Shown here piece by piece: positions 37,165 to 54,879 of a DNA stretch of 64,000 nucleotides. The stretch is from Pirellulales bacterium (GTDB lineage Bacteria > Planctomycetota > Planctomycetia > Pirellulales > PALSA-1355): positions 96,001 through 160,000 of the forward strand of contig CAVTBU010000010.1 in assembly GCA_963733035.1 (NCBI GenBank), read 5' to 3'. The notes under the pieces are model-generated. The model saw only the letters and a list, made by a program, of their open reading frames with translations, was not told where the DNA came from and did not search any database. Position numbers and translations under genes: made by a program. Numbering within the stretch: position 1 is the stretch's first letter; the number at the start of each line of letters is the position of its first letter.

Positions 37165-37409
37165 CTTTCTGCAGATGGTGTAGAGGCTTCAGGCCGCGCA
37201 TTCTAGCCCCTGCTCACAGCTCGGGCAACTTCGAGTGCGCTGAGGATGCGCGGTTCAGCGCACGGTGCACAACCTCGTCCACCGCAAAGAGTTGGCAAGA
37301 GCGCATGCGTGAGAGCCAGGAAAAGACGACGCGGGGGGGAGTGGCTGGTAGACGAAAGCAGCCGCTGGGACCTCGGGGGCTCGATTCAGCCCCGTGAGGT
37401 GCTGACCGC

Positions 37410-37508
37410 TCAGGTGCGGATGTCTTTCCGCTTCAGTCGACGCGCCTTGCTGTTGGCGGGCCGCTTGCCGTGGTTGGCTTTCTTCAACTTGCGATGGGGT
37501 TTGGCCAT
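37410..37508 (-). CDS. Small basic protein, bL37-like 50S ribosomal protein (32 aa)
   Basis: MAKPHRKLKKANHGKRPANSKARRLKRKDIRT; KANHGKRP matches the core of mycobacterial bL37; below the ORF-track size cutoff. Confidence 0.72.
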   Translation of the reverse strand: MAKPHRKLKKANHGKRPANSKARRLKRKDIRT

Positions 37509-37802
37509 GAGTGCATTCTCGTACGGAGCAACCGGGAAACGCTCTATTATAGAAATCCCGTCGGAAGTTGCTAGGCGTGCCCTCGGCGAAACCGGAATTC
37601 GGGCTGTCAACCAGGTTGGCATCGACTGCTGGCACCGACCTACCGTCATTTTGGGTCCCGGGCAACGCGGATTGACCGAGTTGGGGGTTTTCGGTACAAG
37701 TCCCGCCACTTTTCCCGTGCCCGGCGCACTTTTGCGGGGGCCGAGCAGCGTACTCATTTCGCCCTGCGCGGCAAGAATTGTCGCGGTTCGAAGGTTCCAC
37801 GG

Positions 37803-39218: not shown

Positions 39219-40208
39219 ATGACGACGACAGAGCGCAACGTCCGCAAAGCGGCCATCTTGCTGGCCTGCCTCGACGACGAGCATGCTGAAACGCTGTTGC
39301 GCCAAATGTCGCCGGCGCAAGACCATGTGTTGCGTCAAGCCGTGGAACTTCTGGGCGAGATTGACCGGGCGGAACAGGAAGACGTGATCGAGGAGTTTTT
39401 CCGCGTCGGGCTCTTGATACCGGATTCTGACCTGGCCGGTATTGAACTCGATGCGCAGCTACCGCACACACTGACGCTTGGTATCACGGAGGCCAGTACG
39501 ACCGGGGCCACGCCGTTTCGCTTCCTGCATGAAGCCCCCCCGCATAAGCTCGTGCCGTTTTTGGAGCGTGAGCATCCGCAAACAGTGGCGGTTGTCGTGT
39601 CTCACCTGCCAGCCGATCGCGCCGCCGAAATCCTGGCGCATCTGCCCGGCGAGTTGCAGATCGACGTGGCCCGCCGGCTGGTCGACCTTGAGGAGACGGA
39701 TCCCGAGGTTTTGCAGGAAGTCGAACGGGGGCTTGAGTCGTGGTTGTGCTCACAAATTCACGGTGATCGTCCCAAGCGAGACGGCGTGTCGGCGCTGGCA
39801 AACATCCTGAGCGCCGCCGACCCTCAGGCACGACATCACATACTGTCGAACCTTGCCCGGCATGACCGGCGGCTGGCCGAAAAGTTGGAAGCACCGGCCG
39901 CGCCTCCGCTTTCGTTTGCGGATTTAGAGTGCATGGATTCGGCGTCGCTGGCCGTTGTTTTGCATCACGCCGAACGCGAGTTGTTGGTATTAGCTTTGGC
40001 CGGCGCCGGCCCCGAATTCTGCGAGCGAGCGCAGAGCCTGTTGGGTGGCCAGGGGATGGCGATACGACAGGCTCTACGTCATCTGGGGCCGACACGGCTC
40101 AGCGACGTCGAGGAAGCCCAGCGTCAATTGGCCGAACTGGCTCGATATCTGGAACAACGTGGCGAAATCGTGCCCGAGGTGCGTGGGCGATTGAGCCTGG
40201 CAATTTAA
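39219..40208 (+). CDS. fliG: Divergent FliG-family protein
   Basis: RKAAILL, PFRFL, EHPQTVAVVVSHL, DGVSALANIL, LGPTRLSDVEEAQ. Confidence 0.88.
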   Translation: MTTTERNVRKAAILLACLDDEHAETLLRQMSPAQDHVLRQAVELLGEIDRAEQEDVIEEFFRVGLLIPDSDLAGIELDAQLPHTLTLGITEASTTGATPFRFLHEAPPHKLVPFLEREHPQTVAVVVSHLPADRAAEILAHLPGELQIDVARRLVDLEETDPEVLQEVERGLESWLCSQIHGDRPKRDGVSALANILSAADPQARHHILSNLARHDRRLAEKLEAPAAPPLSFADLECMDSASLAVVLHHAERELLVLALAGAGPEFCERAQSLLGGQGMAIRQALRHLGPTRLSDVEEAQRQLAELARYLEQRGEIVPEVRGRLSLAI

Positions 40209-40237: not shown

Positions 40238-40891
40238 ATGCCACGCGTACTGAAAGCTCCACCCACATCCGAGGCGATGGAGTTTTTGACATTTGCCTTT
40301 GACGACTTGGAGGAGTCGGCTCGTTCGCAACTCGAAGCGGCGCGTCGCGAAGCCGCCGAACTGCTGACCGCGGCTCGCCAGGAAGCCGAGCAATTGCGCC
40401 GACAAGCCGAGGAGGACGGTCGCGCTGCGGCCGGCCAGGCGATCGAACAAATCATTGCCGAGCGGGTTGCCACGCAAGTGGCAACGACCATGCCGGCGCT
40501 CGATCAGGCGGTTGCCGACCTGCGCGCCGCCAAAGCCGACTGTCTGGTTCGTTGGGAAGAAGCCGCGCTAGGCGTGGCCACGGCGATTGCCGCTCGCGTC
40601 ATTCGCCGTGAGGTCTCCCATTCGCCGGAAATCAGTTTGTCGCTCGTTCGTGAGTCGCTCGAACTGGCGGCCGGGAGCACCGATTTGCAGTTGCGCATGC
40701 ACCCCGACGACCTGGCAGTGCTCGGGGCGGAGGTTGAAGATCTGCTTGGTCAACTTGTGCGTAGTGGCGAGAGGGCGCTCGTGGCGGATGCCACGATCAC
40801 GCGCGGGGGCTGCCGCGTTGACACGCGTTCGGGCAGCATCGACCAGCAATTCGAGGCCCAATTGGCCCGCATCGAACAGGAACTGCGTTAG
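40238..40891 (+). CDS. fliH: FliH/SctL ATPase stator stalk
   Basis: Ala/Glu-rich helix, LRMHPDDL, DATITRGGCRVDTRSGSID. Confidence 0.88.
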   Translation: MPRVLKAPPTSEAMEFLTFAFDDLEESARSQLEAARREAAELLTAARQEAEQLRRQAEEDGRAAAGQAIEQIIAERVATQVATTMPALDQAVADLRAAKADCLVRWEEAALGVATAIAARVIRREVSHSPEISLSLVRESLELAAGSTDLQLRMHPDDLAVLGAEVEDLLGQLVRSGERALVADATITRGGCRVDTRSGSIDQQFEAQLARIEQELR

Positions 40892-40917: not shown

Positions 40918-42243
40918 ATGCCACTGCTGCTCGACAACCTCCACGCTCGGCTGCGCGAAATGGTGCCGGCCGACTTGCGCGGCCGCATCGTGCGTACGTC
41001 GGGGTTGACGGCCGCCGTCGCCGGGTTTCCGGCACCAGTCGGATCGCTGGTAAGCATCGAGCGGCACTCGGGCGAGCCGCTATCTGCGGAAGTGATCGGG
41101 TTTGTCGATGATTTGACCCTGGTTTCGTTGCTCGACCGAGCGCAAGGTCTCAGGCACGGTGACCACGTTAGGTTGGTGAAAACCTCGCGATGGATTCGCG
41201 TCGGTGACGGATTGTTGGGCCGCGTGATCGACGCCCGCGGAAAGTGCATCGACGGTTCGCCACAGCCGGCACTCGAGCACCGCGCTCCGCTCGAGCGAAC
41301 CGCACCGTCGGCCATCTGCCGCCCGCGTATCGATGAGTCCATTTCGACGGGTGTGCGCGCGATCGACGGCTTGCTCACCTGCGGCAAAGGTCAACGGCTG
41401 GGCATCTTTGCCGGATCGGGCGTCGGCAAGAGCATGACACTCGGCATGATCGCTCGATATACGACGGCGGATGTGAACGTCGTGGCGCTCGTCGGCGAGC
41501 GCGGCCGAGAGGTGAACGAGTTCCTGCAGCGCGACCTGGGGCCTGGGCTGGCCAAGAGCGTTGTCGTGGTAGCCACCAGCGATGAACCGGCATTGGCGCG
41601 CGTGCAGGCGGCGCTGGTTGCAACCACAGTGGCCGAATTCTTTCGCGATCAGGGAAACGACGTGCTGTTGATGATGGATTCGCTCACGCGGCTGGCGCTC
41701 GCGCAACGCGAGATTGGTCTGGCCGCCGGCGAGCCGCCCACGACGCGCGGTTTCCCACCGTCGACATTCGCGCTATTGCCGCGGTTGCTCGAACGGGCCG
41801 GCCGCACGGAGCAGGGGAGTATCACCGGGCTTTACTCGGTGCTCGTCGAAGGGGACGACCCCCAGGAACCCATCGCCGACACGACGCGCGGTTTGCTCGA
41901 TGGGCACATCTGGTTGTCGCGAGCGCTGGCCGCGGCGGGGCACTATCCTGCGATCGACGTGCTGGAAAGCGTGAGCCGCTCGATGCATGACGTTGTCGAC
42001 GACGATCATCGGCAAGCCGCCCTGGAAGTCCGCCGTCTGTTGGCCACCTATCGTCAACATGAGGACCTGATCGCCGTCGGGGCTTATCGCCAGGGAACCA
42101 ACGCCAACGTCGATCGGGCGATCGCACTGCGAGACGAGATTCACACCTTGCTTCAGCAGCGCGTGGATCAGCGCGCAAGCGTGTCGCAGGCCAAGGAAGC
42201 TCTCGTTCGGCTGGCCGCCCGGGCTACGCAGGATGCGCCATGA
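40918..42243 (+). CDS. fliI: FliI/SctN export ATPase
   Basis: GQRLGIFAGSGVGKS, GERGREV, LLMMDSLTR, GEPPTTRGFPP, LDGHIWLSR. Confidence 0.95.
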   Translation: MPLLLDNLHARLREMVPADLRGRIVRTSGLTAAVAGFPAPVGSLVSIERHSGEPLSAEVIGFVDDLTLVSLLDRAQGLRHGDHVRLVKTSRWIRVGDGLLGRVIDARGKCIDGSPQPALEHRAPLERTAPSAICRPRIDESISTGVRAIDGLLTCGKGQRLGIFAGSGVGKSMTLGMIARYTTADVNVVALVGERGREVNEFLQRDLGPGLAKSVVVVATSDEPALARVQAALVATTVAEFFRDQGNDVLLMMDSLTRLALAQREIGLAAGEPPTTRGFPPSTFALLPRLLERAGRTEQGSITGLYSVLVEGDDPQEPIADTTRGLLDGHIWLSRALAAAGHYPAIDVLESVSRSMHDVVDDDHRQAALEVRRLLATYRQHEDLIAVGAYRQGTNANVDRAIALRDEIHTLLQQRVDQRASVSQAKEALVRLAARATQDAP

Positions 42244-42710
42244 AACCGTTTGCCTTTCGTCTCGACGGCCTACTGAAATTGCGCATCGCCCAGCGCGACG
42301 TCGAGCGCGTCGACCTGGCGGCCGCACTTGCCGAGCAGGTTCGGCTGACCGCTCTGTGCCATGCGCTGCAAACGCAATTGTCGCGCCTGCTAGCCGAACA
42401 GCGTACCGCGCGGATTGCCGGTACCGTGCTGCTTGAGTCGCTGGTCCGATTAGAGCACTTCGCAGCAGCCACACGGAGTAAGCTCGCCGCGGCCAACGGA
42501 GCTCGGATCGCGGCAGAGCAGCGAGTGGCCCATTGTCAGCATGCGGTGGCAGCAGCCGAACGCGACGTTGACGTGCTCGAAAAGCTGCGCGAGCAAGCGC
42601 AGGTTCGCCATCAAAGGGAACTCGCACGCCGACAGGTCAAGCGGCTCGACGAGGTTGCCGGGCAATGTTTTGTCCGTGCGGCGGTGCGGTCATCCGGCGG
42701 ACCACGCTAG
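42240..42710 (+). CDS. fliJ: Flagellar export protein FliJ
   Basis: FAFRLDGLLKLR N-terminus, LEKLRE, KRLDE; ATGA overlap with fliI. Confidence 0.8.
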   Translation: MKPFAFRLDGLLKLRIAQRDVERVDLAAALAEQVRLTALCHALQTQLSRLLAEQRTARIAGTVLLESLVRLEHFAAATRSKLAAANGARIAAEQRVAHCQHAVAAAERDVDVLEKLREQAQVRHQRELARRQVKRLDEVAGQCFVRAAVRSSGGPR

Positions 42711-42960
42711 CATCACGGTGCTGGAGCTAGTCCACTGGCCGGCGGTATTTCGCGATCTGACCTTGATCGAAAATTGCTTTTCGAGGACAAACCCGCCCGA
42801 CTCTGGCCCAGGCACATCTCGCCAGAGTTGTCGTTCGACAACACATATCCTTTTGCAAATCGTCCACGCGTATCTGGCGCATTGCCGCCGCGCGCTTTGC
42901 GGGTGATTCGATCCGCTGGCCGCACGCCGACATGTGGCAGCCGTGGCAGGATTCAATAGC

Positions 42961-43209
42961 ATGGTCGATCGCATGCCATCGCCGCGCGGCGACAGGAATT
43001 TAAGAATTGAATTGGGACGGGCGCGGCTGCCGTGGCAGGAGTTTACGAAGTTAGCCAAGGGGAGCGTGGTTTCGCTGGAGACGCTGGTGGACGAGCCCGT
43101 CGATATCGTCGTGGGTGGCCGGCTGGTGGCCAAAGGCGAGGTGCTCGTGCTTGACGGTTGCTTTTGCATTCGCGTTACGCAGTTGCTCGGTGGCAAGGGA
43201 GCCGCTTGA
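42961..43209 (+). CDS. fliN: Short FliN-like (SpoA domain) protein; start uncertain
   Basis: LRIELGRARL..LAKGSVVSL..DEPVDIVVGGRLVAKGEVLVLDGCFCIRV. Confidence 0.8.
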   Translation: MVDRMPSPRGDRNLRIELGRARLPWQEFTKLAKGSVVSLETLVDEPVDIVVGGRLVAKGEVLVLDGCFCIRVTQLLGGKGAA

Positions 43210-43261: not shown

Positions 43262-44017
43262 ATGCCACGCGTCGCAAGCTTGCTGATGTTAGGGCTGGTG
43301 CTAACGGCATTCGCAGCTGGTGGTGCCGCCGGACAGAGTCCCGCTCAAAGCGGCGGGCAGGTCCGTTGGGGCGACCGGCCGGTGAGCCCACCGCAAATCC
43401 CATGGACGGGCGGTACCGCGGTTGCCCGGCCCGTCGAACCACCGCGGCTCTTGCCCGCGGGATATCAATCGCCGCCCGGAGGGGCGAGTAATACGGCGGC
43501 ATATCGCCGCCAGGTGCGCACGGTGGGCGGTCAACAGCCGCTGCCGCTGCCGCCTCAGCCAGGCGGCGTGGCGGCGCCAGGAGCCAAACCGCAGCTGCCT
43601 CCGCTGGTCACAGGCGCGGCCAGCCTGGGCATCGTGTTAGGGCTGTTTTTATTGGTGGTGTGGAGCGTACGGCGCGGGATGCCCAGGGGCTCGGGCATAC
43701 TACCCAGCGGGGCCGTTGAAGTGCTGGGACGCGCGCCGATCGCGGGCCGACAAAACGTGCACCTGGTGCGCTGCGGCAACAAGATCGTGTTGCTGAGCAT
43801 TACGGCGACCAGTGTTGAGACGCTGACCGAGATTTCGGACCCCGACGAGGTCGATCGACTGCGCGAACTTTGTCGCCAAACTTCCGCGCCGGCCACGGCG
43901 TGGCAGCATCTGATGGGCCGACTTGGCAACCTGGGGCAAGGCGTCGACATTCAGGAAAGGCGGCCGGACCAAATCGATTTCGGCCACCTCGAAGTCGGCA
44001 CTCAAACTCGGGCTTGA
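43262..44017 (+). CDS. fliO: FliO with Pro-rich N-terminal extension
   Basis: SLGIVLGLFLLVVW TM followed by VEVLGRAPIAGRQNVHLVRCGNKIVLL..LTEISDPDEV. Confidence 0.8.
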   Translation: MPRVASLLMLGLVLTAFAAGGAAGQSPAQSGGQVRWGDRPVSPPQIPWTGGTAVARPVEPPRLLPAGYQSPPGGASNTAAYRRQVRTVGGQQPLPLPPQPGGVAAPGAKPQLPPLVTGAASLGIVLGLFLLVVWSVRRGMPRGSGILPSGAVEVLGRAPIAGRQNVHLVRCGNKIVLLSITATSVETLTEISDPDEVDRLRELCRQTSAPATAWQHLMGRLGNLGQGVDIQERRPDQIDFGHLEVGTQTRA

Positions 44018-44025
44018 GGAGCGGC

Positions 44026-45105
44026 ATGACCATGAGCCAATTCTTACGACCGAAGAAAAGCGGCTGGCCGTTGGCCGGCGGGCTAGTCGCGCTTTGTGTT
44101 TTCGCATTGGTGTTGTGCTGGGCGCATTGCGCGGTGCGCGCGATGCCGATGGCGCAAGAGCCTGCCGCGGTGGAAGCCCCGCCGGTGGTTGCGCCTGTGT
44201 CGACGGCGGCTGCCGCGATGCCGAGTCCGCCGGGAGTGCCACCGATCAAGCCCGTTCCGCTGGAAACGAAAACGGACCAAGCGCACGGGGGCGAATCGGA
44301 GCTGCTGTCGCCACCAGGCACCGATCTTTCGGCCCCACAACCGATTGAAAACGCCGCTCAGCTACCGACGGATCCGCCGTCCGCTCAAGATGCCCACCAA
44401 TTTTCCTTGCCGGGCGGCCTTGGCGGACCGGAGCAGTGGACGAGCCCCGAGGGAATTTCCTCGGCCCTGCAAACGCTGGCGCTGTTGACAGTCGTCAGCC
44501 TGGCACCGGCGGTGCTGATGATGACTACTTGTTTCGTGCGAATTGCCATCGTCCTGGGGCTGTTGCGACAGGCGCTTGGCACGCAGCAGCTGCCTTCGAA
44601 CCAGGTTGTGACGTCGCTGGCGCTCTTCATGTCGCTCCTGATTATGGCGCCGGTTTGGAACCAGGTTTATGAAGACGCCGTGGTGCCGTACGCCGCGCAC
44701 GAGATCTCGCTGCACCAGGCCTGGGATACGGGCATCAAGCCGGTTCGCGGATTCATGAGCGCGCAGATCGAGCGGACAGGCAATAGCGGCGACGTGTGGT
44801 TGTTCTACAAATACTTGCCGGCCGACACGCCGGCACCGTCGAGCTACAACGACGTGCCGCTGACGGTACTTATGCCGGCCTTCATGCTCAGCGAACTGAA
44901 GACGGCGTTTCTGATCGGCTTTCAGGTGTTCCTGCCGTTTCTCGTGATCGACCTGGTCGTTTCGAGCGTGACGATTTCGATGGGCATGTTCATGGTTCCG
45001 CCCGTGCTCGTCTCGTTGCCGATGAAGTTGCTGCTATTCGTACTGGTCGATGGCTGGCACCTGGTCGTGGGGATGTTGATGGATAGCTTCCAACTTGTTG
45101 CCTGA
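44026..45105 (+). CDS. fliP: Export gate protein FliP with long Pro-rich N-terminus
   Basis: GAGGAG then ATG 44026; MMTTCFVRI..LRQALGTQQLPSNQV, PAFMLSELKTAF, MGMFMVPP, KLLLFVLVDGW. Confidence 0.95.
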   Translation: MTMSQFLRPKKSGWPLAGGLVALCVFALVLCWAHCAVRAMPMAQEPAAVEAPPVVAPVSTAAAAMPSPPGVPPIKPVPLETKTDQAHGGESELLSPPGTDLSAPQPIENAAQLPTDPPSAQDAHQFSLPGGLGGPEQWTSPEGISSALQTLALLTVVSLAPAVLMMTTCFVRIAIVLGLLRQALGTQQLPSNQVVTSLALFMSLLIMAPVWNQVYEDAVVPYAAHEISLHQAWDTGIKPVRGFMSAQIERTGNSGDVWLFYKYLPADTPAPSSYNDVPLTVLMPAFMLSELKTAFLIGFQVFLPFLVIDLVVSSVTISMGMFMVPPVLVSLPMKLLLFVLVDGWHLVVGMLMDSFQLVA

Positions 45106-45116
45106 GGTTCGCGCGA

Positions 45117-45383
45117 ATGAATCCCCAAGATGCCGTCGATTTGGGTCGCCAGGCCACCAACATAGCCTTGATGTTGGGAGGTCCGGTGCTGCTTTCGGCG
45201 CTGGTCGTGGGACTGATCGTGGGTTTGCTACAGGCGGCCACTGGCGTGCAGGAACAAACCGTGTCGTTCGTACCCAAGCTGGTGGCCGTGGTGGTTGCAC
45301 TCAGCCTGATGCTGCCCTGGCTGATCGAGCAGATGGTGCAGTATTCGCATGACGTGATTACGAACATTCCGCTGTCGCTCTAG
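45117..45383 (+). CDS. fliQ: Export gate protein FliQ
   Basis: 88 aa; GLLQAATGVQEQTVSFVPKL. Confidence 0.93.
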   Translation: MNPQDAVDLGRQATNIALMLGGPVLLSALVVGLIVGLLQAATGVQEQTVSFVPKLVAVVVALSLMLPWLIEQMVQYSHDVITNIPLSL

Positions 45384-45394
45384 GTGCTGGCCCG

Positions 45395-46174
45395 ATGTTA
45401 CCGCTGGTCGAATATCTACACGACCACCTGGCCGTGATTGCCCTGGTACTGACTCGCGTCGCGGCGCTCGTGTTCGTGGCGCCGCTGTTGGGGCCGTTCG
45501 CCGTTTCGTGGCGCATTCGGGCGGGCCTGACGGTGGCCGTGACGGCCCTGGTGGTGCCGCTGGAGATCGAACGAGCTACGAGCCCGCCGGAGAATCTCGG
45601 GCAGTTTTTGGTGCTGGCCGGCGGCGAGGCACTGGTCGGGCTGATGTTGGGACTCGGCGTGCGGATTTTGTTTTCCAGCATGCAGGTCGCCGGACAATTG
45701 ATCAGTCAGATGAGCGGCCTGCAGTTGGCCGAAGTGTTCAGTCCGGCAATGGGGTCCAGCGTGCCGGTATTTTCGCAGTTGTTGCTGTTGGTGAGCACGG
45801 CGGTGTTCTTTCTGATCGGCGGTCATCGGCAAATGATCGAGGCCTTGCTTGACAGTTTCGCCTGGTTGCCCTCCGGGCAGGCGGCCGCCTCTCGTTCCGC
45901 ACTCGACGCGGTTACGGCCCTCGTTTCGCAGAGCTTCATCCTGGGGCTGAGGATCGCCGCGCCGGCGGTCGTGGCGCTGCTTTTGTCCACGTTGATCGTG
46001 GGCTTTATCAGCCGCACGCTGCCGCAATTGAACAGCCTGTCGCTGGGGTTCGGCATCAACGCCTTGGTGGCGGTGGCGGCCGTTGGGCTGTCGCTGGGTG
46101 GCGCTTGCTGGATCTTTCAGGAAACGCTTGGCCCCGTGCTGCAAACGGCGCTTGAGTCGTTACATCCGCAATAA
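45395..46174 (+). CDS. fliR: Export gate protein FliR
   Basis: EALVGLMLG, AGQLISQMSGL, IGGH, GFISRTLPQLN. Confidence 0.92.
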   Translation: MLPLVEYLHDHLAVIALVLTRVAALVFVAPLLGPFAVSWRIRAGLTVAVTALVVPLEIERATSPPENLGQFLVLAGGEALVGLMLGLGVRILFSSMQVAGQLISQMSGLQLAEVFSPAMGSSVPVFSQLLLLVSTAVFFLIGGHRQMIEALLDSFAWLPSGQAAASRSALDAVTALVSQSFILGLRIAAPAVVALLLSTLIVGFISRTLPQLNSLSLGFGINALVAVAAVGLSLGGACWIFQETLGPVLQTALESLHPQ

Positions 46175-46201: not shown

Positions 46202-47068
46202 ATGGCCGATGACGCCGATAAAACGCAGGCTCCCACAGTGCGCCGCCGTCAACAGGCACGCGAGGCGGGGCAAGTCGCGCACAGCCAAGATCTCAGTTCG
46301 GCACTCCTGCTGTTGGGCTGTTTCACGCTGGTGGTCACCACCGGCGGTGCGCTGGTTGCGTTCCTGATGGAACTGCTGCAATCAAGCCTGGGAGGTAGTG
46401 CGTGGCGGGCCGGGCTCGAATCGAACGCCACGCGCGAAACGTTTCTCGCGCAGTGGCACATGCTGGTGGCGTCGCTCGGCGAGCGGTTGCTGCCGGTGTT
46501 GGCGGGGGCGACCCTGTTGGCGCTTGGCGTCCATTGGTTGCAAACCGGCTTCATTTTTTTGCCGGCCCGGGCAATGCCGGACTTTTCACGGGTCAATCCG
46601 GCGAAGGGTTTCGGACGCATGTGGTCGGGAGAGAATTTTTCGCGGCTGCTGTTTGGCCTGTTCAAGGTGGTGGTGGTGGCGGCCGTTGGTCTGGCGGGCG
46701 CGTGGAGCCGCCGCAATGAGATCGCGGCGCTCGCCGGAGTCGACCTACCGGAGTTGGCATCCGACGCTTGGGAAATCTGCCTTTGGTCGTGCGTCGAAAT
46801 GGGCGGCGCGCTGCTTGCGCTATCGGCGCTCGACTATCTCTACCAGCGCGCGAGCCTGGAACGGTCTCTGCAGATGACGCCGCAGGAAGTTCGCGAGGAA
46901 ATGCGCGAGCTGCAAGGCGATCCGCAAATCGCCGCCCGGCGCCGGCAAATCGCTCGTCGCACAGGGGGGCAGCAGGATAGCGGCGCGAAAGGGGAAACGC
47001 ATCCCACAGATCGCCGGGCGATCGCGACTTCGCCGGCCCAGATCGGCGCCGTCGATTCGATTCGTTAG
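46202..47068 (+). CDS. flhB: FlhB, C-terminally truncated (no NPTH/cytoplasmic switch domain)
   Basis: DKTQAPTVRRRQQAREAGQVAHSQDL, PDFSRVNPAKGF, LQMTPQEVREEMRELQGDPQ; 288 aa, stops about 50 aa after GDP. Confidence 0.88.
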   Translation: MADDADKTQAPTVRRRQQAREAGQVAHSQDLSSALLLLGCFTLVVTTGGALVAFLMELLQSSLGGSAWRAGLESNATRETFLAQWHMLVASLGERLLPVLAGATLLALGVHWLQTGFIFLPARAMPDFSRVNPAKGFGRMWSGENFSRLLFGLFKVVVVAAVGLAGAWSRRNEIAALAGVDLPELASDAWEICLWSCVEMGGALLALSALDYLYQRASLERSLQMTPQEVREEMRELQGDPQIAARRRQIARRTGGQQDSGAKGETHPTDRRAIATSPAQIGAVDSIR

Positions 47069-47084
47069 GCGAAGCCGCGTCCGA

Positions 47085-48245
47085 TTAGCCCGCGGTTTGG
47101 GCCGGCGTGGGCTGGCAGTAGCCATAGTGACGCATGTGAGGTCCCCAGCGCTCGTCGATTTTGCTTCGCAAGTCGTCGGGAATGTCGTAGCTGCCGATGC
47201 GATAGTTCTGCCGATCTTTGAAGTATTCTTCGAGCTTGGGCCGCGCCGTCTCGAATTCGCCCAATTCCAGATGTTCGTATAAGGCCTGCATCCGGCCGAT
47301 CGGATCACGCACCAGGTCTTCGTAGCGAACCTCGAAAAACCTTGCTGGGTCCAACAACTCGCGATCGCGATCGAAGGCCTGATACATCATCTCGAAGCAG
47401 GAAAAGACATATTCTTCCAACTGATCGTGCCGGGCTTCCTGCAACGCTTCGAATTTGTAAAGCGTCTTCCAGAGCTTCACGGTCGAGCCGAAGAGCGGAT
47501 ACGGATCGCGCACGATGTGCACGAAGCGAGCATCCGGAAACAATTCGAGCAGCGTCTTGATACGCCCGGTATGTGGGGGCGACTTGAGAATGATTCGCTT
47601 GGGGCTGCGAAACGTGACGCGCTTCAAAAACCACTCGAGCCCCTGTTTCCATGCGGCGAGGTCCCGGTCGCTGAGCCCCTCGAGCGTCAGGTACTGCTGG
47701 TAGTCGGTCGACTCGTTGGGGAAGGCCATCTTCAAATACGGGGATGGCAAGCCCATGTTGCACAGCGCGAATTCGTCTTCCTGCGGCTTGTCAAAGCCGG
47801 CGGCCATGTGGTCCATCGGCCGCTTCGAAGGGAGCAGGAATTTGAACTTGGTGAGGAACCAGTCGCTGATCAGAAAATGGTTGGGCACCAGGCACTGGTA
47901 GGTCGTCGGAAACGTGTATCGCCCGTCGAGCACCATCAGCTCATGCAACAGCGTGGTGCCCGAACGCCAATGACCGACGATGAAGATCGGCGCGTCCTTG
48001 ATTTGCATCCGCTCCAGGTGCCGCTTGAGCAGGAGCTCTTGGAGCGGCTTGAGCGTGGAGTTCATCAGCGATGCGCCAGTGACCGTGGCGGCCAGCCCCC
48101 ATTTGGTCAGGCCGATCCGGAACTTGTTTCGGGCCAGTAGCCTGATCCAAGTGCCGAAGCCCATGCCGTGCCAAAAGCGGGCGTGCCAGAAGTGATAAGG
48201 GTTCACTTCGACGCGTTTCGACTTTGGATCGGCGCTGGTTGCCAT
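47085..48245 (-). CDS. PAPS-dependent sulfotransferase
   Basis: PIFIVGHWRSGTTLLHEL (5'-PSB loop), LKSPPH, FPDARFVHIVRDP, VRYEDLVRDP. Confidence 0.9.
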   Translation of the reverse strand: MATSADPKSKRVEVNPYHFWHARFWHGMGFGTWIRLLARNKFRIGLTKWGLAATVTGASLMNSTLKPLQELLLKRHLERMQIKDAPIFIVGHWRSGTTLLHELMVLDGRYTFPTTYQCLVPNHFLISDWFLTKFKFLLPSKRPMDHMAAGFDKPQEDEFALCNMGLPSPYLKMAFPNESTDYQQYLTLEGLSDRDLAAWKQGLEWFLKRVTFRSPKRIILKSPPHTGRIKTLLELFPDARFVHIVRDPYPLFGSTVKLWKTLYKFEALQEARHDQLEEYVFSCFEMMYQAFDRDRELLDPARFFEVRYEDLVRDPIGRMQALYEHLELGEFETARPKLEEYFKDRQNYRIGSYDIPDDLRSKIDERWGPHMRHYGYCQPTPAQTAG

Positions 48246-48480
48246 GAGTTTCTCCGCGGTTGCATGCCGTTCGGCACCGGCTCGTCCGTCAAAGACACGT
48301 AGTCGAGCGGTCGCCGCCGGCAAGCGCGCCGGCTCAAGGGGCGATGCGTCCTCCGCGGACCCGCGCGTCGGACCTCCGCCGTCTGCCGGATGGAATGTTG
48401 CCAGCGTCAAAGATAACAGTCTCCGTTCGAGAGGGCCACCGCCGCAGGGGCGTCTTGCCCGAGGCCGTTTTTCATCGTTT

Positions 48481-49002
48481 TTATTGCAAATCGCCCGCGC
48501 TGGCGTCGCTTCGCCGTGCCACGTGCTGCAGTGCTGCCTGCATGGCCATCATCACCTGGTGCCCTGGCTTCTTGCCGACCACCCGTTCCAGCGGTACACC
48601 CCGCGGTGAGAGGAATTGGATCGTGGGATAGCCGGTCACCTGAAATTGCCGGCAGACTTCCGGTTCGACGTCGGCATCGATCAGGACACAGACAAATTGG
48701 TTGGAAAGACTAACGACCTGCGGGTGCGTAAAGGCTTCCTCGGCCATCTGCCGGCAATACTCGCACCATTTGGCCGTGAAGTACAACAGCATGGGCTTCG
48801 ATTGCCGTACACTTTCGGCGTAGCCCTGGCGGTATCCGACGACGAACTGCAGTTCGCCGTGCGCCAAATAACTGGCTCCCACGGCGCGGCCATCTGCCGG
48901 ACGTTGTTCGACGGCGCTGTCTGGTGTCTCGACACCAAGCTCACAGCCGTACTTGAGGGCCAGCAGTGCTAGCAAACAAGCCCCGAACGCAAAGTATTTC
49001 AT
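48481..49002 (-). CDS. Exported thioredoxin-family protein
   Basis: N-terminal anchor; KPMLLYFTAKWCEYC; VTGYPT cis-Pro motif. Confidence 0.85.
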   Translation of the reverse strand: MKYFAFGACLLALLALKYGCELGVETPDSAVEQRPADGRAVGASYLAHGELQFVVGYRQGYAESVRQSKPMLLYFTAKWCEYCRQMAEEAFTHPQVVSLSNQFVCVLIDADVEPEVCRQFQVTGYPTIQFLSPRGVPLERVVGKKPGHQVMMAMQAALQHVARRSDASAGDLQ

Positions 49003-49499
49003 GATGCTTTGGGGAAATCGATAGAACGGCGGGGCACAGTGGCAAGGTGGCGTCGCGCGGCAGGTAAACGGGCGGATGACAACGAGGCGCGCACGCAACA
49101 TATCGTCGCGCCGAGAAAGTGAACTTGAGCGAGCTGCGACGATCGGTACCGAACGGCGTCCCGAATGCCGCATGATTCCCCCCTGGCTCTCATGCGGAGC
49201 CGTGTACCATTGGAAGGTGCAGCAACACGAGTTGCGTCGCAACTTCGGCGGTCTATCGATGCAATCAGGGGGTTGGTGGCTGGGCTGTCCAAACTATGAA
49301 AATCTCGCAAGGGCTATTTCCCCCAGAGGTGGGCATCGGTGCGACTGCACTTGGGCGTGCTAGCGGCCTATTTCCCGGTTCGCGTGGGCGCAAGACCGAC
49401 CTGGACACTGGCACGGGGTTTCAGTAACTTCCCGCCTCCTTTCTGCCACACGCACCTCGTCGTTCTGACAACACCGTTTACCGCCGGAATCGAATTCGG

Positions 49500-51593
49500 A
49501 TGGCTACCGCTGCCGTGCCACGCGTGCCCCGTTCGCTAGCGCAGGTGCAAGACCTCGTCTTGCCCGTCGCTGCGATTGCTAGCGTGCTGGTGATTCTGGT
49601 GCCGCTGCCGACACCGGTGATGGACTTACTGCTAGCGGCCAACATTGCAGTGGCCGTGATCGTTCTGTTGACGACGATCTACGTCCGCACGCCGCTGGAG
49701 TTCAGCGTGTTTCCGACGTTGCTTTTGGCCACCACGCTCTCGCGGTTGGTGCTCAACGTGGCCACCACGCGGCTGATTCTGAGCGACGCGGGTGATCGCG
49801 GCCTGATGGCGGCCGGCGGTGTGGTGCGCAGTTTCGGCGAGTTTGTGGCAGGCGACAAAATCGTCGTGGGGCTGGTGATCTTCGCGATTATCGTCGTGAT
49901 TCAGTTCGTGGTGATCACGAAAGGCGCCACCCGCATCAGCGAAGTTGCGGCCCGGTTTGCACTGGATGGCATGCCGGGGCGGCAAATGGCCATCGATGCG
50001 GATCTGGCGGCCGGCAACATCAGCGAGAAACAAGCCCAGACGCGTCGTCAGGAAGTGACCCAACAGGCCGACTTCTTCGGCGCCATGGACGGTGCCAGCA
50101 AATTCGTCCGCGGCGACGCAATCGCGGGCATCATCATCACGCTGATCAACATCCTGGGCGGACTGGTTATCGGCATTGTCGAATATCGGATGGGCATTGG
50201 CGAAGCCGCCGATTTGTTCACCCGCCTGACCATCGGCGATGGTTTGGTCAGTCAGATTCCCGCGTTCTTGATTTCGCTGGCTGCCGGCTTATTGGTGACG
50301 CGCAGTTCCTCGAGCGTCAACCTGCCGGTTCAATTTCTGAACCAACTGTTTTCACGCCCGCAAACGCTGGCCGTGACGGGCGTCTTTCTGGGTCTGTTAA
50401 TTTTCACGAAACTGCCGGCGGTGCCGCTGGTGGGATTGGGAGGCGGTTGTGTCGGACTGGCCATGCTACTCACCCGTCGCCAGCACGAAGCCGAAGCATT
50501 GGCCCGACAACAGGCGGCGGTGCCCCAGAAGCTGCGCGATCAGCGCGTCGAGGACTACCTGGCCGTTGACCCGATGGAAATCGAGATCGGTGCCGGCTTG
50601 ATTCGGCTGGCCGACCCGAAGCGTGGCGGAGATCTGCTCGACAGGATTCAACGTTCGCGCCAGGCGATTGCGGCCGAGATGGGGCTGATCATGCCCAAGG
50701 TTCGAATCCGCGACAATCTGCGGCTCGGCGCGCGGCAATATCGCATCAAGATCGCCGACCTGCCGGTTGCCGAAGGCGAATTGCAGCCCGCTATGTTGCT
50801 GGCCGTCGATTCCGGCAATGCCAGCGGAAACATCAGCGGACTGGCGACGCGCGATCCGGCGCACGGCATGCCCGCCACCTGGATCGAGCCGTCGGCGCGA
50901 CAACAGGCCGAGTCACAAGGCTATCACGTTGCCGAACCGATTAGCGTATTGGTTAACCACCTGACCGAGACCGTGCGGTCGCACGGCGACGAAATACTGA
51001 CGCGGGACGCGACTCGGCACCTGGTCGATGAGCTCAAGAAGACGTCGCCTACGGTGGTTGACGAGCTGATTCCCGACCAGATGAAGCTGGCCGAGGTGCA
51101 GCAGGTGTTGCAGCTCTTGCTGCGCGAGCAAGTGCCCATCCGGCAACTCGCGAGCATCCTCGAAGCGTTGGGCGAAGAGGTCTCGCGCACCAAGGATCCG
51201 ATCGCGCTTAGCGAACGAGTGCGGCACCGGCTGGCCCGGGCCATTTCGACGCGGTATCGCGACAAGCATGGACGGCTGGCCGTTGTCACGCTCGACCCGG
51301 CACTGGAGGAGCGAATTCGGGCCGCGACACAGCGCGTCGGCGGAACGCTTACGGTTTCGCTCTCACCGCAAGTCGTCGAGACTCTTTGTCAAAGGTTAGC
51401 CGGTGAGTTGGCGCGGCATGCCGGCTCCGGACGAACAGCCATCGTGTTGGTCAGCCCGGCGATACGACCGGCGCTCAAACAAATCACGATGGCCGCGCTG
51501 CCGCGTTTGGTCGTGCTGAGCTACGACGACGTGACACGCGACACGCAATTGGAATCCTTGGGATTGGTCGAATTGGAATCCGTCGACGAATGA
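49500..51593 (+). CDS. flhA: Export gate protein FlhA
   Basis: RISEVAARFALDGMPGRQMAIDADL, FFGAMDGASKFVRGDA, TIGDGLVSQIP; full cytoplasmic domain; 697 aa. Confidence 0.96.
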   Translation: MATAAVPRVPRSLAQVQDLVLPVAAIASVLVILVPLPTPVMDLLLAANIAVAVIVLLTTIYVRTPLEFSVFPTLLLATTLSRLVLNVATTRLILSDAGDRGLMAAGGVVRSFGEFVAGDKIVVGLVIFAIIVVIQFVVITKGATRISEVAARFALDGMPGRQMAIDADLAAGNISEKQAQTRRQEVTQQADFFGAMDGASKFVRGDAIAGIIITLINILGGLVIGIVEYRMGIGEAADLFTRLTIGDGLVSQIPAFLISLAAGLLVTRSSSSVNLPVQFLNQLFSRPQTLAVTGVFLGLLIFTKLPAVPLVGLGGGCVGLAMLLTRRQHEAEALARQQAAVPQKLRDQRVEDYLAVDPMEIEIGAGLIRLADPKRGGDLLDRIQRSRQAIAAEMGLIMPKVRIRDNLRLGARQYRIKIADLPVAEGELQPAMLLAVDSGNASGNISGLATRDPAHGMPATWIEPSARQQAESQGYHVAEPISVLVNHLTETVRSHGDEILTRDATRHLVDELKKTSPTVVDELIPDQMKLAEVQQVLQLLLREQVPIRQLASILEALGEEVSRTKDPIALSERVRHRLARAISTRYRDKHGRLAVVTLDPALEERIRAATQRVGGTLTVSLSPQVVETLCQRLAGELARHAGSGRTAIVLVSPAIRPALKQITMAALPRLVVLSYDDVTRDTQLESLGLVELESVDE

Positions 51594-51638: not shown

Positions 51639-52775
51639 ATGAACGTCAAGACTTATCGCGCCAAAACGATGCAGGAAGCACTGGCCCTGGTGCGCAACGA
51701 CCTGGGGTCCAAAGCCTCCGTATTGCGCACTCGCGAGATTCGTCCGCGGGGCCTGTCGCGTTTGTGGAGCGCGGTTGGCATGATCGAAGTCGTTGCCTCG
51801 GCGAATGTGTCCGTACCGAGTCGACTGCCAAGCCGGCAGCCAATTATGTCGCCCGTTGCCGTGCCGGCAACACACGCGGGCCTGGATCTTTCGGCGGCAT
51901 CTTCGGAAGTGCGATTGCCACAAGGTTCTGCGGCACGTTCGGGCGGAGACAAGCACGAGCCGTTGGGCGTCCTCTCGCAGGTTCTGGCCGAGCTGCTGGC
52001 CACGGGACTCGACGAGTCTTATGCCCGAGAGCTGATCACGCGCGTTCGTCGTTTGCACGGCGAAGCGATGGTGGCCGACTCGGCAACGATGCGGCAGTTG
52101 TTGGCTGCCGCCATTGAAAAGGAGATTCGGGTCGCGGGCCCGATCTCGACGACGCCCGGGCAGAGACGTTTGGTGGCTCTGGTTGGCCCAACCGGCGTGG
52201 GCAAGACGACGACGCTGGCCAAGTTGGCGGCACACTATCGGGTGTTTGAGAATCGCCGCATCGGTTTGATCACCTGCGACACGTATCGCGTGGCCGCCGT
52301 CGAGCAACTGCGGACGTATGCCGACATTATCGACGTGCCGCTGGAAATCGCCTCCACGCCGCGTGAAGTCAAACAGGCCGTGGCGCGGATGTCGGACGTT
52401 GACCTGGTGCTGATGGATACCGCCGGTCGCAGTCCGCACGACGCGGCAAGAATTCAGCAGCTCAACCTACTCCTGTCCGAGGCAGCGCCCGACGAAGTTC
52501 ACCTGGTCCTTTCCAGCGCGGCTAATGCGGACGGCCTATGCGAGACGATCGAACGATTCGCACCTGCTCGTACGACCGCGCTGCTGCTAACCAAACTGGA
52601 CGAAGTCGCATCGTTGGGAAGCGTGTTCAACGTAATTCGACGTCGGCACATACCGCTTAGCTACCTGACGTATGGTCAGGACGTGCCGGCCGATATTGTC
52701 GTGGCCGATCCCGCACCGCTGGCGCGGGCGGTGGTCGGATTGGTCCGGCTGGCCGGACATCAACCTCCCCGTTAG
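51639..52775 (+). CDS. flhF: SRP-type GTPase FlhF
   Basis: [51 protein letters not shown]. Confidence 0.93.
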   Translation: MNVKTYRAKTMQEALALVRNDLGSKASVLRTREIRPRGLSRLWSAVGMIEVVASANVSVPSRLPSRQPIMSPVAVPATHAGLDLSAASSEVRLPQGSAARSGGDKHEPLGVLSQVLAELLATGLDESYARELITRVRRLHGEAMVADSATMRQLLAAAIEKEIRVAGPISTTPGQRRLVALVGPTGVGKTTTLAKLAAHYRVFENRRIGLITCDTYRVAAVEQLRTYADIIDVPLEIASTPREVKQAVARMSDVDLVLMDTAGRSPHDAARIQQLNLLLSEAAPDEVHLVLSSAANADGLCETIERFAPARTTALLLTKLDEVASLGSVFNVIRRRHIPLSYLTYGQDVPADIVVADPAPLARAVVGLVRLAGHQPPR

Positions 52776-52784
52776 CACAAAACT

Positions 52785-53618
52785 ATGTTTCGCGATCAAG
52801 CCACCGAACTCCGAGAACTAGTTCAGCACCGCACGCCCGCGGGCGGTGCCTCAGGAGAGATTGCGCCGCTGGTCGTGGTCGGCGGTGGAAAAGGGGGCGT
52901 CGGAACGACAACCATCGCGGTGAATCTGGCGGTTGCTCTTGCGCGCGAAGGACGCCGCGCCGTGTTGGTCGATGCCGACCTGGAGCACGGCGGGCAAATA
53001 CACTTCACGTCTCAGCGCGACCCGGGCAACATCCTGGACGTGCTCAGCGGACGGCGCGGCTTGCACGAAGTCCTCGCGCGCGGACCAGCGGGCGTGCAAG
53101 CGGTGACGGGCGCCTGGTCCGCAACCGAACCCAACGCGTGCTCCGCCGCGCGGCAGGCCAGATTCGTCGATCAACTCAAGTCGCTCGCGCCGCACGCAGA
53201 AGTGATTGTGGTCGACGCCGGCAACAGCCGCACGCCGTTTGTGCGCTTGTTCTGGCACGCGGCCGATGTGATTTGGGCGGTGACCACGCCCGAAGATGCC
53301 GCGGTTTTGCAATGCTACGCGGCCATCAAGGCCAATTTAGCCGGATGCAGTCGGCCGCCGCTACAAACGCTGGTCAATCGAATCGACGAACGGCTGGCTG
53401 GCGACGTGCACGCGCGGCTGGCCGAGGCCTGTCACCGATTTCTCGCCGTGCGCGTCGACGATGCTGGTAGCGCCGCAGTTTGCGAGCCGCGGGACGAGGT
53501 CTTATTTCACACCGGCTCGTTGGCGGAGCATGCCTTCGACCGTGCGGCCGAACGGTTATGGGCTTACCTGCAACGGGGTGACCGCGGCCTGTTGGACCGC
53601 GATCGGGGAGTTGCGTGA
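52785..53618 (+). CDS. flhG: FlhG/MinD-like ATPase with degenerate Walker A
   Basis: DQATELR activator helix, GKGGVGTTT, LVDADL, VTTPE; lies between flhF and fliA. Confidence 0.8.
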   Translation: MFRDQATELRELVQHRTPAGGASGEIAPLVVVGGGKGGVGTTTIAVNLAVALAREGRRAVLVDADLEHGGQIHFTSQRDPGNILDVLSGRRGLHEVLARGPAGVQAVTGAWSATEPNACSAARQARFVDQLKSLAPHAEVIVVDAGNSRTPFVRLFWHAADVIWAVTTPEDAAVLQCYAAIKANLAGCSRPPLQTLVNRIDERLAGDVHARLAEACHRFLAVRVDDAGSAAVCEPRDEVLFHTGSLAEHAFDRAAERLWAYLQRGDRGLLDRDRGVA

Positions 53619-54087: not shown

Positions 54088-54879
54088 ATGGTAATGGCGA
54101 TGACCACGATGGCGCCCGAGGACGTGGCGCAGATTTGGCAACAGTTCAAGCAGGATATGGAGAACCAGGAGCTCCGTAACCGGCTGGTGGAAATCTATCT
54201 GCCGCTGGTCAAGTACAACGGCGAGCGGATCTGGTCGCGGTTGCCTGAGGGCGTGGAACTGGACGACCTGATTTCGGCCGGTGTGTTCGGCCTGATGGAC
54301 GCCATCGACGCCTTCGATCTATCGCGCGGCGTCAAGTTCGAAACCTATTGCGTGCCGCGGATCCGCGGTGCCATGCTCGACGAACTGCGGACGATGGACT
54401 GGGTGCCGCGTCTGGTCCGCTCGAAAGCCAGCAAGCTCAACGAGGCAATCAAGACGCAGGAAGCCCGTCTGGGCCGCGCTCCCAGCGAAATCGAGTTGGC
54501 CGAGCACATGGGCATCTCGGTTCCTGAGCTCGAAAAGATGGTGATGGAGGCCAACGCCGTCAACCTGATCAGCCTGAACAAGAAGTGGTATGAGACCGAC
54601 AGCTACAAGGACGTTCGCGAGATCGACATCCTCGAGGACAAAAAGGGAGAAGATCCGACGCGACGGATCCAGAAGCACGACCTGATGCGGCTGGTTACCA
54701 AAGGGCTCAACCGCAACGAACGGCTGATTATCATCCTCTACTACTACGAAGAGCTGACGATGAAAGAGATCGGCGCCACGCTCGATCTCTCGGAAAGCCG
54801 CGTCAGCCAGATGCACAGCTCGATCGTCCAGCGTCTGCAAGGCCAACTCCGTCGGCGCAGGCCGGAGTTTGGAACCTAG
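54088..54879 (+). CDS. fliA: FliA/WhiG-family sigma factor (sigma28)
   Basis: DDLISAGVFGLMDAID, KFETYCVPRIRGAMLDELRTMDWVPR, LTMKEIGATLDLSESRVSQMH. Confidence 0.96.
   Translation: MVMAMTTMAPEDVAQIWQQFKQDMENQELRNRLVEIYLPLVKYNGERIWSRLPEGVELDDLISAGVFGLMDAIDAFDLSRGVKFETYCVPRIRGAMLDELRTMDWVPRLVRSKASKLNEAIKTQEARLGRAPSEIELAEHMGISVPELEKMVMEANAVNLISLNKKWYETDSYKDVREIDILEDKKGEDPTRRIQKHDLMRLVTKGLNRNERLIIILYYYEELTMKEIGATLDLSESRVSQMHSSIVQRLQGQLRRRRPEFGT

Follow-up and report, generated by a model that had tools for sequence, protein, structure and literature searches.

Cleavage of FlhB/SctU at its NPTH site, together with FliK, switches type III export from hook to filament substrates, and to our knowledge FlhB's C-terminal domain (FlhB-C), along with its autocleavage at NPTH, is regarded as universal in type III export and essential to it. 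FlgM, which is chaperoned by sigma-28, is a known substrate of this export. FlhX-type proteins are stand-alone versions of FlhB-C and represent the obvious way in which a missing domain could be supplied from a separate gene. Reduced flagellar systems are also known, as in the aphid symbiont Buchnera, in which reduced basal bodies made from a partial gene set without a filament, and with rod and hook kept, are thought to serve as exporters. Here, we describe a 64,000-nucleotide (nt) stretch of Pirellulales DNA (assembly GCA_963733035.1, contig CAVTBU010000010.1, positions 96,001 to 160,000 of the forward strand; hereafter the window, whose own numbering is used for all coordinates given without a contig), in which flhB ends before FlhB-C within a cluster of flagellar export genes. 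The host, a planctomycete of soil or freshwater, is uncultured, and whereas Buchnera is host-restricted with a tiny genome, the window lineage is free-living with genomes of 5-7 megabases. Compared with canonical FlhB/SctU (PF01312; PDB 6s3l, 8z5s, 36hu), the window protein has the same membrane domain, loop, linker helix, and place after fliR, but is without the autocleaving NPT(H/E) C-terminal domain that in the canonical protein holds the early-substrate pocket and is the target of FliK.

The closest counterpart is a set of Salmonella mutants. The sections of the Salmonella study on which we draw (Chevance et al. 2026, mBio, PMC13344023) describe FlhB-C as the FliK target and as the site of a hydrophobic pocket in which rod- and hook-type substrates dock, and FliE as the activator of the FliP pore. 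In a selection strain with no rod or hook genes except fliE and with no Flk, selection for late export yielded flhB mutations that included a stop at codon 258, and a clean deletion of FlhB residues 270-383 had the same effect; with these changes, (i) FlgM-Bla was exported to the periplasm via the type III gate independently of FliK, and (ii) secretion of the early substrate FlgE-Bla ceased (PMC13344023, same sections). As far as these sections describe them, the mutants are like the window genome in that FlhB ends near the autocleavage site, rod and hook proteins are missing, FlgM and sigma-28 are present, and FliK is unneeded. They differ in that they were engineered or selected, keep fliE, and needed both Flk loss and raised expression, whereas the state of the window genome is natural and fixed throughout a lineage. 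Lysobacter enzymogenes OH11 is similar in that it has no flagellin and keeps and expresses its flagellar export genes, for which another role is proposed; however, it still has genes for the hook, rod, L ring, P ring, and hook cap, and it secretes FlgD (both according to the portions of PMC7688988 used here), whereas the window genome has neither axial genes nor FlhB-C.

The flhB open reading frame (ORF; 46202-47068, plus strand) encodes 288 amino acids (aa) and lies directly 3′ of fliR and clustered with flhA, as in relatives. The protein scored 192.5 bits with Pfam Bac_export_2 (PF01312), but of the 335 profile positions only 2-239 were covered; positions 240-335 were unmatched, and no C-terminal autocleaving domain with NPTH or NPTE was present. 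The full-length (equivalog) score was not reached with NCBIfam flhB TIGR00328 (158.7 bits over profile positions 2-244 of 348, cut-off 349.25), and the score against TIGR01404 was below its cut-off (146.9 versus 358 bits). Neither NP(T/S) nor NPE occurs in any of the six frames of 46700-47600. The original prediction that FlhB stops before its autocleaving substrate-switch domain was thus borne out, with the profile match ending at position 239 and no NPT in any frame. For the retained part, phmmer against solved structures aligned aa 3-255 with the FlhB chains 36hu_K1, 8z5s_x, and 6s3l_K and paired these residues with Salmonella FlhB residues 5-252, such that aa 255 corresponds to Salmonella 252. 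From a 95-sequence alignment, AlphaFold2 gave a model that was confident for aa 1-260 (mean pLDDT, the predicted local distance difference test score of the model, 87.7), and a Foldseek search with this model gave a sole match at E ≤ 0.001, namely, 6s3l_K, the FlhB of the FliPQR-FlhB complex. Every residue that is invariant in the 95-sequence N-domain alignment, loop and linker helix included, is kept in the window FlhB; these sequences show D127, R130, and P133 of the FlhB loop to be invariant or nearly so, and M225, E229, E233, and R247 of the cytoplasmic linker helix (MTxQExxEE...GDPQ...RRR, present at aa 225-253) to be invariant. By its N-domain, its linker, and its genomic place, the protein is therefore a member of the FlhB family that fails in the defining C-terminal feature and in the full-length cut-offs.

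The protein can be divided into three segments, all on the plus strand: (i) the retained aa 1-253 (46202-46960; profile positions 2-239), comprising the four-helix membrane domain together with the FlhB loop and linker helix; (ii) a tail linker of aa 254-270 (46961-47011) that is poorly conserved in the alignment; and (iii) a conserved end of aa 271-288 (RRAIATSPAQIGAVDSIR) which, with the stop codon, occupies 47012-47068. The tail of 35 aa (aa 254-288) thus follows GDPQIAARRRQIARR (aa 239-253). The stop codon, TAG at 47066-47068, is separated by a 16-nt spacer from the stop of a sulfotransferase gene on the minus strand (47085-47087), and the coordinates confirm the distance that had been given for this convergent stop. 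The lack of room 3′ of flhB is explained by a clean deletion of the domain, of which it is the result and not the cause. The tail had been described as unrelated, with only the relic-like THPTD and ATSPAQ, a view that holds in part. ATSPAQ is plausibly a relic of TNPTEL, while THPTD shows no conservation, and the tail is not wholly unrelated since the last 18-19 residues are conserved in four other genomes (G001-G003 and G007). The C-terminal ends are nearly identical, with ...ERRPLATTPANISGVDSIR in the window genome versus ...DRRAIATSPAQIGAVDSIR in the three other genomes of the genus, and likewise in G007. When aligned with full-length relatives, the conserved end occupies the place of the strand-NPTE-strand hairpin, shifted by a 5-residue insertion, and we read it as a kept relic in which some role is left. 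Modeled aa 261-288 had a pLDDT of about 50, at which no fold can be claimed for the conserved end motif.

The remainder of the window genome (G000), a metagenome bin of 10 contigs and 92.3% completeness, did not provide the missing domain. A Bac_export_2 search of the whole genome returned only one further match (14.7 bits, C5:1143946-1144062), which was rejected as chance, being antisense to a 470-aa phosphoglucosamine-mutase-like ORF. A clade-specific FlhB-C profile, a hidden Markov model built from the C-terminal domains of 21 relatives and run with filters off, reached no E-value below 0.23 across 125,842 six-frame segments. A stand-alone FlhB-C gene and fliK, both of which the original prediction had named as the genes to look for, were therefore not found in this genome, the former by family search as well as by clade profile. 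The other 11 truncated genomes (of 41 sampled; see below) had no second Bac_export_2 match, and no FlhX-type protein (a name among those listed in the portion of PMC10746217 used here) was found in them or in the window genome. Three other genomes of the genus (G001-G003) have the same FlhB architecture, with proteins of 286 aa that are 56-57% identical to the window FlhB. In addition, one contig of another public run (X2) spans 46897-47146 gap-free; five DNA runs contain small shares of the locus, and the four placed on the region gave short contigs only. Two apparent truncations among the relatives were false and were not counted: in G006, a contig end cuts FlhB and the C-terminal piece opens another contig, and in G020, a run of N interrupts FlhB. 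In three further genomes of few contigs and 61-82% completeness (G011, G018, and G022), the FlhB match is spread over two to four frames; these splits look like assembly indel errors and not real breaks.

Along with the truncation, the axial part of the flagellum has been lost. The reference for gene order and for tblastn queries was G004, a flagellated genome of the same family. In G004, flgB, flgC, and fliE lie 5′ of fliF, and fliK, flgD, flgE, flbD, motA, motB, and fliL lie between fliJ and fliN; at these places the window has a 640-nt region without a real gene and a 223-nt spacer (42711-42933), respectively. When the window genome was searched by tblastn with G004 proteins, FliF, FliG, FliI, FliJ, FliN, FliO, FliQ, FliR, FlhA, and, of FlhB, residues 4-237 only were detected, and nothing was found with FlgB, FlgC, FliE, FliK, FlgD, FlgE, FlbD, MotA, MotB, or FliL. 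Family searches of the window genome gave no match for Flg_bb_rod (PF00460), Flg_bbr_C (PF06429), flagellin (PF00669), FliD (PF07195), or FliS, none for FliE (PF02049) at E ≤ 1, and none for FliK; the best MotB_plug match was 16.6 bits (cut-off 24). Across the 12 truncated genomes, flagellin and Flg_bbr_C were each found in 0/12, and FliK was over the cut-off in 0/12. The axial proteins, MotA/MotB, canonical FlgI, and FliK that make up a complete flagellum are, in sum, not found in the window genome. The original prediction of a gate with no specificity switch stands to the extent that FlhB-C and FliK were not found, but not in its implication of a flagellum with a hook-to-filament problem, since the hook, rod, filament, FliE, and stator genes are absent as well; the switch is missing because, with the axial genes gone, there is nothing left to switch between.

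Two candidates for retained flagellar parts were rejected. A 192-aa ORF 5′ of fliF (37246-37824), considered as a FliE substitute, was judged noncoding, with no family match and a low-complexity, Arg-rich translation. A FlgI match of 49 bits in the window genome, considered as a retained P ring, belongs to a FlgI-like paralog of about 600 aa that occurs in 40/41 Pirellulales genomes, flagellated or not; canonical FlgI was confined to flagellated genomes, scoring 111-244 bits when matched as a single piece and being matched as two pieces in G022. In the window genome, the paralog is a 584-aa protein whose FlgI-like domain is split by HEAT repeats, encoded on the minus strand between smc and dnaJ (G000:C5:927735-929489, L153:4735-6489). 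The MS ring (membrane-supramembrane ring) protein FliF (37803-39215, plus strand; Pfam YscJ_FliF, 80 bits) is shortened. It has 470 aa versus 534 aa in G004, with about 6 residues standing in for about 88 (G004 aa 270-357), such that BLASTP aligned its aa 1-267 and 274-392 with G004 FliF aa 1-269 and 358-476. With a single query, this middle segment, which we take to be the collar region of the ring, was not found in 18 of the 21 sampled genomes without rod and hook genes.

We also examined 41 sampled genomes of the order, the relatives being metagenome bins of uncultured Pirellulales or Thermoguttaceae. Rod and hook proteins were found in 20/41 and were missing in the other 21, which span several families and among which FlhB was found in 20/21, FliMN_C in 19/21, and FlgM in 19/21; across the whole sample, FliMN_C and FlgM were each found in 39/41. 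FlhB was cut at profile position 220-245 in 12/41 genomes (G000-G003, G007, G009, G013, G014, G016, G027, G029, and G038), that is, in all four genomes of the genus plus eight more. The survey of FlhB lengths in relatives that had been proposed thus places the truncation in many genomes, and it is not unique to the window assembly. In a library of representatives, 73 of the best 150 matches were shorter than 300 aa; since proteins from metagenomes can be fragmentary and only 35 of the 73 possess an N-terminus of their own plus the linker anchor, these short matches are taken as a lead and not as a count.

A set of 96 distinct FlhBs fell into 65 canonical full-length proteins with T-N-P-T-(E/H/R), 11 full-length proteins with a decayed motif (e.g., ANPAE, SSPEG, ADSSR, TGRAD, and TDPTE), and 20 truncated proteins. 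Left out of this set were (i) L088 (= G006), which runs off a contig end, and the exact duplicates L053 and L068; (ii) L123, L126, L076, and L120, whose lengths are odd or whose starts are uncertain; (iii) G011, G018, and G022, which are split between frames, and G020, with its run of N; and (iv) G038, which is aberrant with an N-terminal extension, and G021, which has no FlhB match. For 53 FlhB entries, the source genome was also searched for Flg_bbr_C. The canonical NPT motif is present in all 21 entries whose genomes carry rod and hook genes, while the 32 entries from genomes without these genes comprise 20 truncated, 11 decayed, and 1 canonical; the state of the motif hence predicts the presence of rod and hook genes in 52/53 entries. 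The single canonical exception, G030, is 72% complete and has a flagellin match, and it is probably flagellated but poorly assembled. Beyond the 12 truncated genomes above, the searches behind these entries found Flg_bbr_C in 0/9 further truncated and 0/5 further decayed-motif genomes, with five matches each in 6/6 canonical genomes searched alongside. The co-occurrence of rod and hook gene loss with the decay or loss of FlhB-C is strict. On a tree of the FlhB N-domain, at least six changes between truncated and not truncated were required, and independent pairs differing in axial genes numbered four on well-supported branches and seven on all branches, all in the same direction. Two genomes with decayed motifs were of note. 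G005, which has a full-length FlhB with ANPAE and no rod, hook, flagellin, or FliK match, is alone among the sampled genomes without rod and hook genes in having FliE (a match of 59 bits), also retains the middle segment of FliF, and seems to show the loss at an early stage; G031 (TNQAE) keeps the FliF middle segment like G005. Separately, L115 is titled "uncultured Bacteroidales bacterium," and its FlhB nests among Pirellulaceae on the tree; this bin is probably mislabeled or mixed.

The spacing from the linker Met to the Asn of NPT is 47 residues in 65/65 canonical FlhBs, and relative to this Asn position, the 20 truncated FlhBs end between -35 and +16 residues, 19 of them within -15 to +16 and the window FlhB at +16. 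The natural truncation thus roughly reproduces the N-terminal product of autocleavage. When G001 and G002 were compared, the ratio of nonsynonymous to synonymous substitution rates (dN/dS) was 0.10 for aa 1-253 (dS 1.26), about 0.40 for the variable linker of aa 254-270, and 0.055 for the last 19 codons, in which 3 nonsynonymous and 10 synonymous changes were counted. Between G000 and G001-G003, synonymous sites are near saturation (dS 1.2-1.5), yet the frame, length (288 versus 286 aa), and tail are kept. The truncated flhB is under purifying selection, with a dN/dS of about 0.1.

The genes that remain around flhB are, apart from one convergent pair, all on the plus strand. Downstream of fliF are fliG (39219-40208; FliG_N, FliG_M, and FliG_C), encoding the C-ring/rotor protein, fliH (40238-40891; FliH, 76.9 bits), the export ATPase gene fliI (40918-42243; ATP-synt_ab and T3SS_ATPase_C; 66% identical to G004 FliI), and fliJ (42240-42710; FliJ, 35 bits). 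After the 223-nt spacer come fliN (42934-43209; 91 aa; FliMN_C, 65.6 bits at G000:C10:138997-139188), fliO (43262-44017; FliO, 41.5 bits), fliP (43870-45105; FliP, 244.8 bits), fliQ (45117-45383; Bac_export_3, 95.6 bits), and fliR (45395-46174; Bac_export_1, 183.3 bits). The start of fliP is uncertain: the longest ORF begins within fliO and the family match only from aa 205, and the true start is probably much further in, or FliP has a long Pro/Ala-rich N-terminal extension. Beyond flhB and a pair of minus-strand genes for the sulfotransferase (47085-48410; Sulfotransfer_3, 125 bits) and a thioredoxin-like protein (48481-49242; Thioredoxin), the plus strand resumes with flhA (49500-51593), which is full length with its cytoplasmic domain (FHIPEP, 802 bits, profile 2-656 of 657) and 70% identical to G004 FlhA across 714 columns, followed by flhF (51639-52775; NCBIfam TIGR03499, 201 bits, cut-off 174), a gene for a MinD/ParA ATPase (52785-53618; CbiA, ParA, and MipZ) named flhG-like from its position after flhF, and the sigma-28 gene fliA (54088-54879; NCBIfam TIGR02479 FliA_WhiG, 264.8 bits, cut-off 189.6). 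Kept elsewhere in the genome are fliM and flgM, the latter as a typical 99-aa ORF on G000:C7 (39.7 bits, cut-off 25). The convergent pair between flhB and flhA (47085-49242) is conserved over many genera. The order fliR-flhB-sulfotransferase(-)-thioredoxin-like(-)-flhA is found in flagellated as well as flagellum-less relatives, with the convergent gene abutting flhB in both; judged by this shared order, the two genes are ancestral neighbors of flhB and not insertions. From its gene content, the window genome is best read as keeping an export core without a flagellum, consisting of FliF, FliG/M/N, FliH/I/J, FliOPQR-FlhB-FlhA, and the placement proteins FlhF/FlhG plus FliA and FlgM.

We lean, with confidence only slightly better than even, toward the reading that FlhB-C became dispensable, and possibly inhibitory, after the early substrates were lost, and that what is left may be a late-locked exporter of FlgM and perhaps of new cargo. 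The features of a late-locked gate that the window genome has are an FlhB without the cleaved C-domain, no rod or hook proteins, FliK not found, and the late substrate FlgM encoded together with sigma-28. With early substrates and FliK missing, FlhB stopping at the cleavage site, and FlgM and sigma-28 kept, the genome is the natural counterpart of the late-locked Salmonella strain. On this proposal, the axial genes (rod and hook) together with FliE, FliK, and the stators would have been deleted in the lineage, and FlhB-C, the dock for early substrates and the target of FliK, would have become dispensable once these substrates were gone. The NPT motif would have decayed first and FlhB-C would have been deleted afterwards, with the MS ring (FliF) being remodeled along the way; we infer that this order of loss, from axial genes through NPT decay to FlhB-C deletion, is likely. 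FlgM, and possibly other cargo, would probably be exported to the periplasm, which would leave a polar exporter in charge of the sigma-28 circuit, and the FliG/M/N ring without stators might serve as a sorting platform for FliH/FliI and not as a rotor.

A number of points weigh against this proposal. Of the features of the late-locked gate, FliE is absent from the window genome, and the gate may not open for this reason. In the sections of PMC13344023 used here, Salmonella FlhB without its C-terminal domain seemed poorly assembled and needed raised expression, and Flk loss was required. The FlhB tree is a quick maximum-likelihood gene tree of about 234 columns and not a species tree, the independent-pairs test had a median p of 0.125 with too few pairs for significance, and all genomes are metagenome bins. 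FlgM is also kept in all flagellated relatives and is thus not specific to flagellum-less genomes. The remaining points of this kind concern the sigma-28 circuit and its expression. In the window genome, regular-expression scans for the promoter motif found 30 and 21 sites versus 104 and 8 in a reversed-sequence control, with no clear enrichment, and no sigma-28 regulon could be named from these scans. A clear sigma-28 promoter was not found in front of flgM, and none of the RNA runs among the public runs checked had the locus. An element that resembles a sigma-28 -10 box (GCCGATAC; L130:2063-2070, G000:C7) does lie about 320 nt upstream of the flgM start, with a poor -35. A sigma-28-type motif, CTAAAG-N16-NCGATA, was found 210-325 nt 5′ of the flagellin match in 8/17 flagellated relatives, implying long leaders for these flagellin genes; in the other 9/17, the promoter may lie outside the approximately 330 nt fetched.

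Of the other explanations, we regard as unlikely that the complex of ring, gate, and ATPase exports nothing and is a polar scaffold or signaling hub (for the pole, pili, or cell cycle) placed by FlhF/FlhG, with the membrane part of FlhB needed only for FliPQR-FlhA assembly inside the MS ring. For non-flagellated Lysobacter, twitching motility is reportedly influenced by genes of flagellar export (PMC7277350). The retention of FlhF and FlhG is consistent with such a role, as are the absence of FliE, which is said to activate the pore in Salmonella, and a FliF without the middle segment of about 88 residues, unfound with this query in most of the rod- and hook-less genomes. However, the energy-coupling parts FlhA and FliI are the best conserved of all when compared with G004; FliH, FliJ, and the full cytoplasmic domain of FlhA, which a mere scaffold should not need, are retained, and so is the export substrate FlgM.

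Less probable still, and in our view quite unlikely, is a slowly decaying, functionless relic in which the FlhB truncation is one step of pseudogenization. The graded series does look like erosion, running from G005 (ANPAE, with FliE and the FliF segment) and G031 (TNQAE, with the FliF segment) to genomes that are fully decayed or deleted, and the lack of an RNA run with the locus fits a silent relic; but the same set of about 15 genes is intact across rod- and hook-less genomes of several families, the axial and stator genes were removed cleanly with no debris, and flhB retains its low dN/dS and its frame, length, and tail at near-saturated synonymous sites. It is very improbable that a flagellum or filament is still made from axial proteins diverged beyond recognition, with another protein replacing FlhB-C and FliK. 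Profile searches can miss divergent proteins, and the FlgI-like HEAT-repeat protein exists; nevertheless, FlgB, FlgC, FliE, FliK, FlgD, FlgE, MotAB, and flagellins are easily detected in flagellated relatives close enough for 70% FlhA identity, the cluster places of the axial genes are empty in the window and no new genes have entered the cluster, and the FlgI-like protein sits between smc and dnaJ regardless of flagellation. Finally, an assembly or frameshift artifact, or a split flhB with its C-terminal half elsewhere, is suggested by the bin nature of this 10-contig genome and by the false truncations in G006 and G020, but the chance of it is slight to the point of vanishing and is largely refuted already by the recurrence of this architecture and tail in G007 and in the genus's three other genomes, by the conserved convergent gene 16 nt past the stop as in relatives, by the lack of NPT in any frame and of FlhB-C anywhere in the assembly, by the lack of a second Bac_export_2 match in the other 11 truncated genomes, and by the contig of an independent run that spans the junction gap-free.

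In the open-access literature searched, no account was found of a natural loss of the FlhB C-domain or of a flagellar core without axial parts in Planctomycetota. The truncated FlhB is a real, conserved, and recurrent feature and a new natural variant of a known machine. A more far-reaching proposal, which we put forward tentatively and consider rather doubtful, is that a large uncultured Pirellulales radiation, amounting to about half of the genomes sampled, runs a dedicated polar, flagellum-less type III exporter that is permanently in late mode owing to the deletion of FlhB-C and secretes FlgM and perhaps new cargo into the periplasm. If true, (i) a flagellar checkpoint would have been turned either into a developmental switch based on sigma-28 that stands alone or into a system for secretion across the inner membrane; and (ii) the repeated order of loss would lend independent support from nature to the 2026 model, which treats FlhB-C as a removable inhibitor that is unneeded for late export. 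The finding raises the question of what role a flagellar export core has in flagellum-less bacteria that keep FliA and FlgM. It also bears on annotation, in that the presence of flhA, flhB, and fliPQR is no evidence of motility in Planctomycetota. In nature, FlhB-C has been removed repeatedly, each time near the cleavage site and only in genomes without any early substrates, with the rest of flhB under purifying selection, and this pattern favors the view of FlhB-C as a domain for docking early substrates and inhibiting late export that is unneeded for translocation itself.

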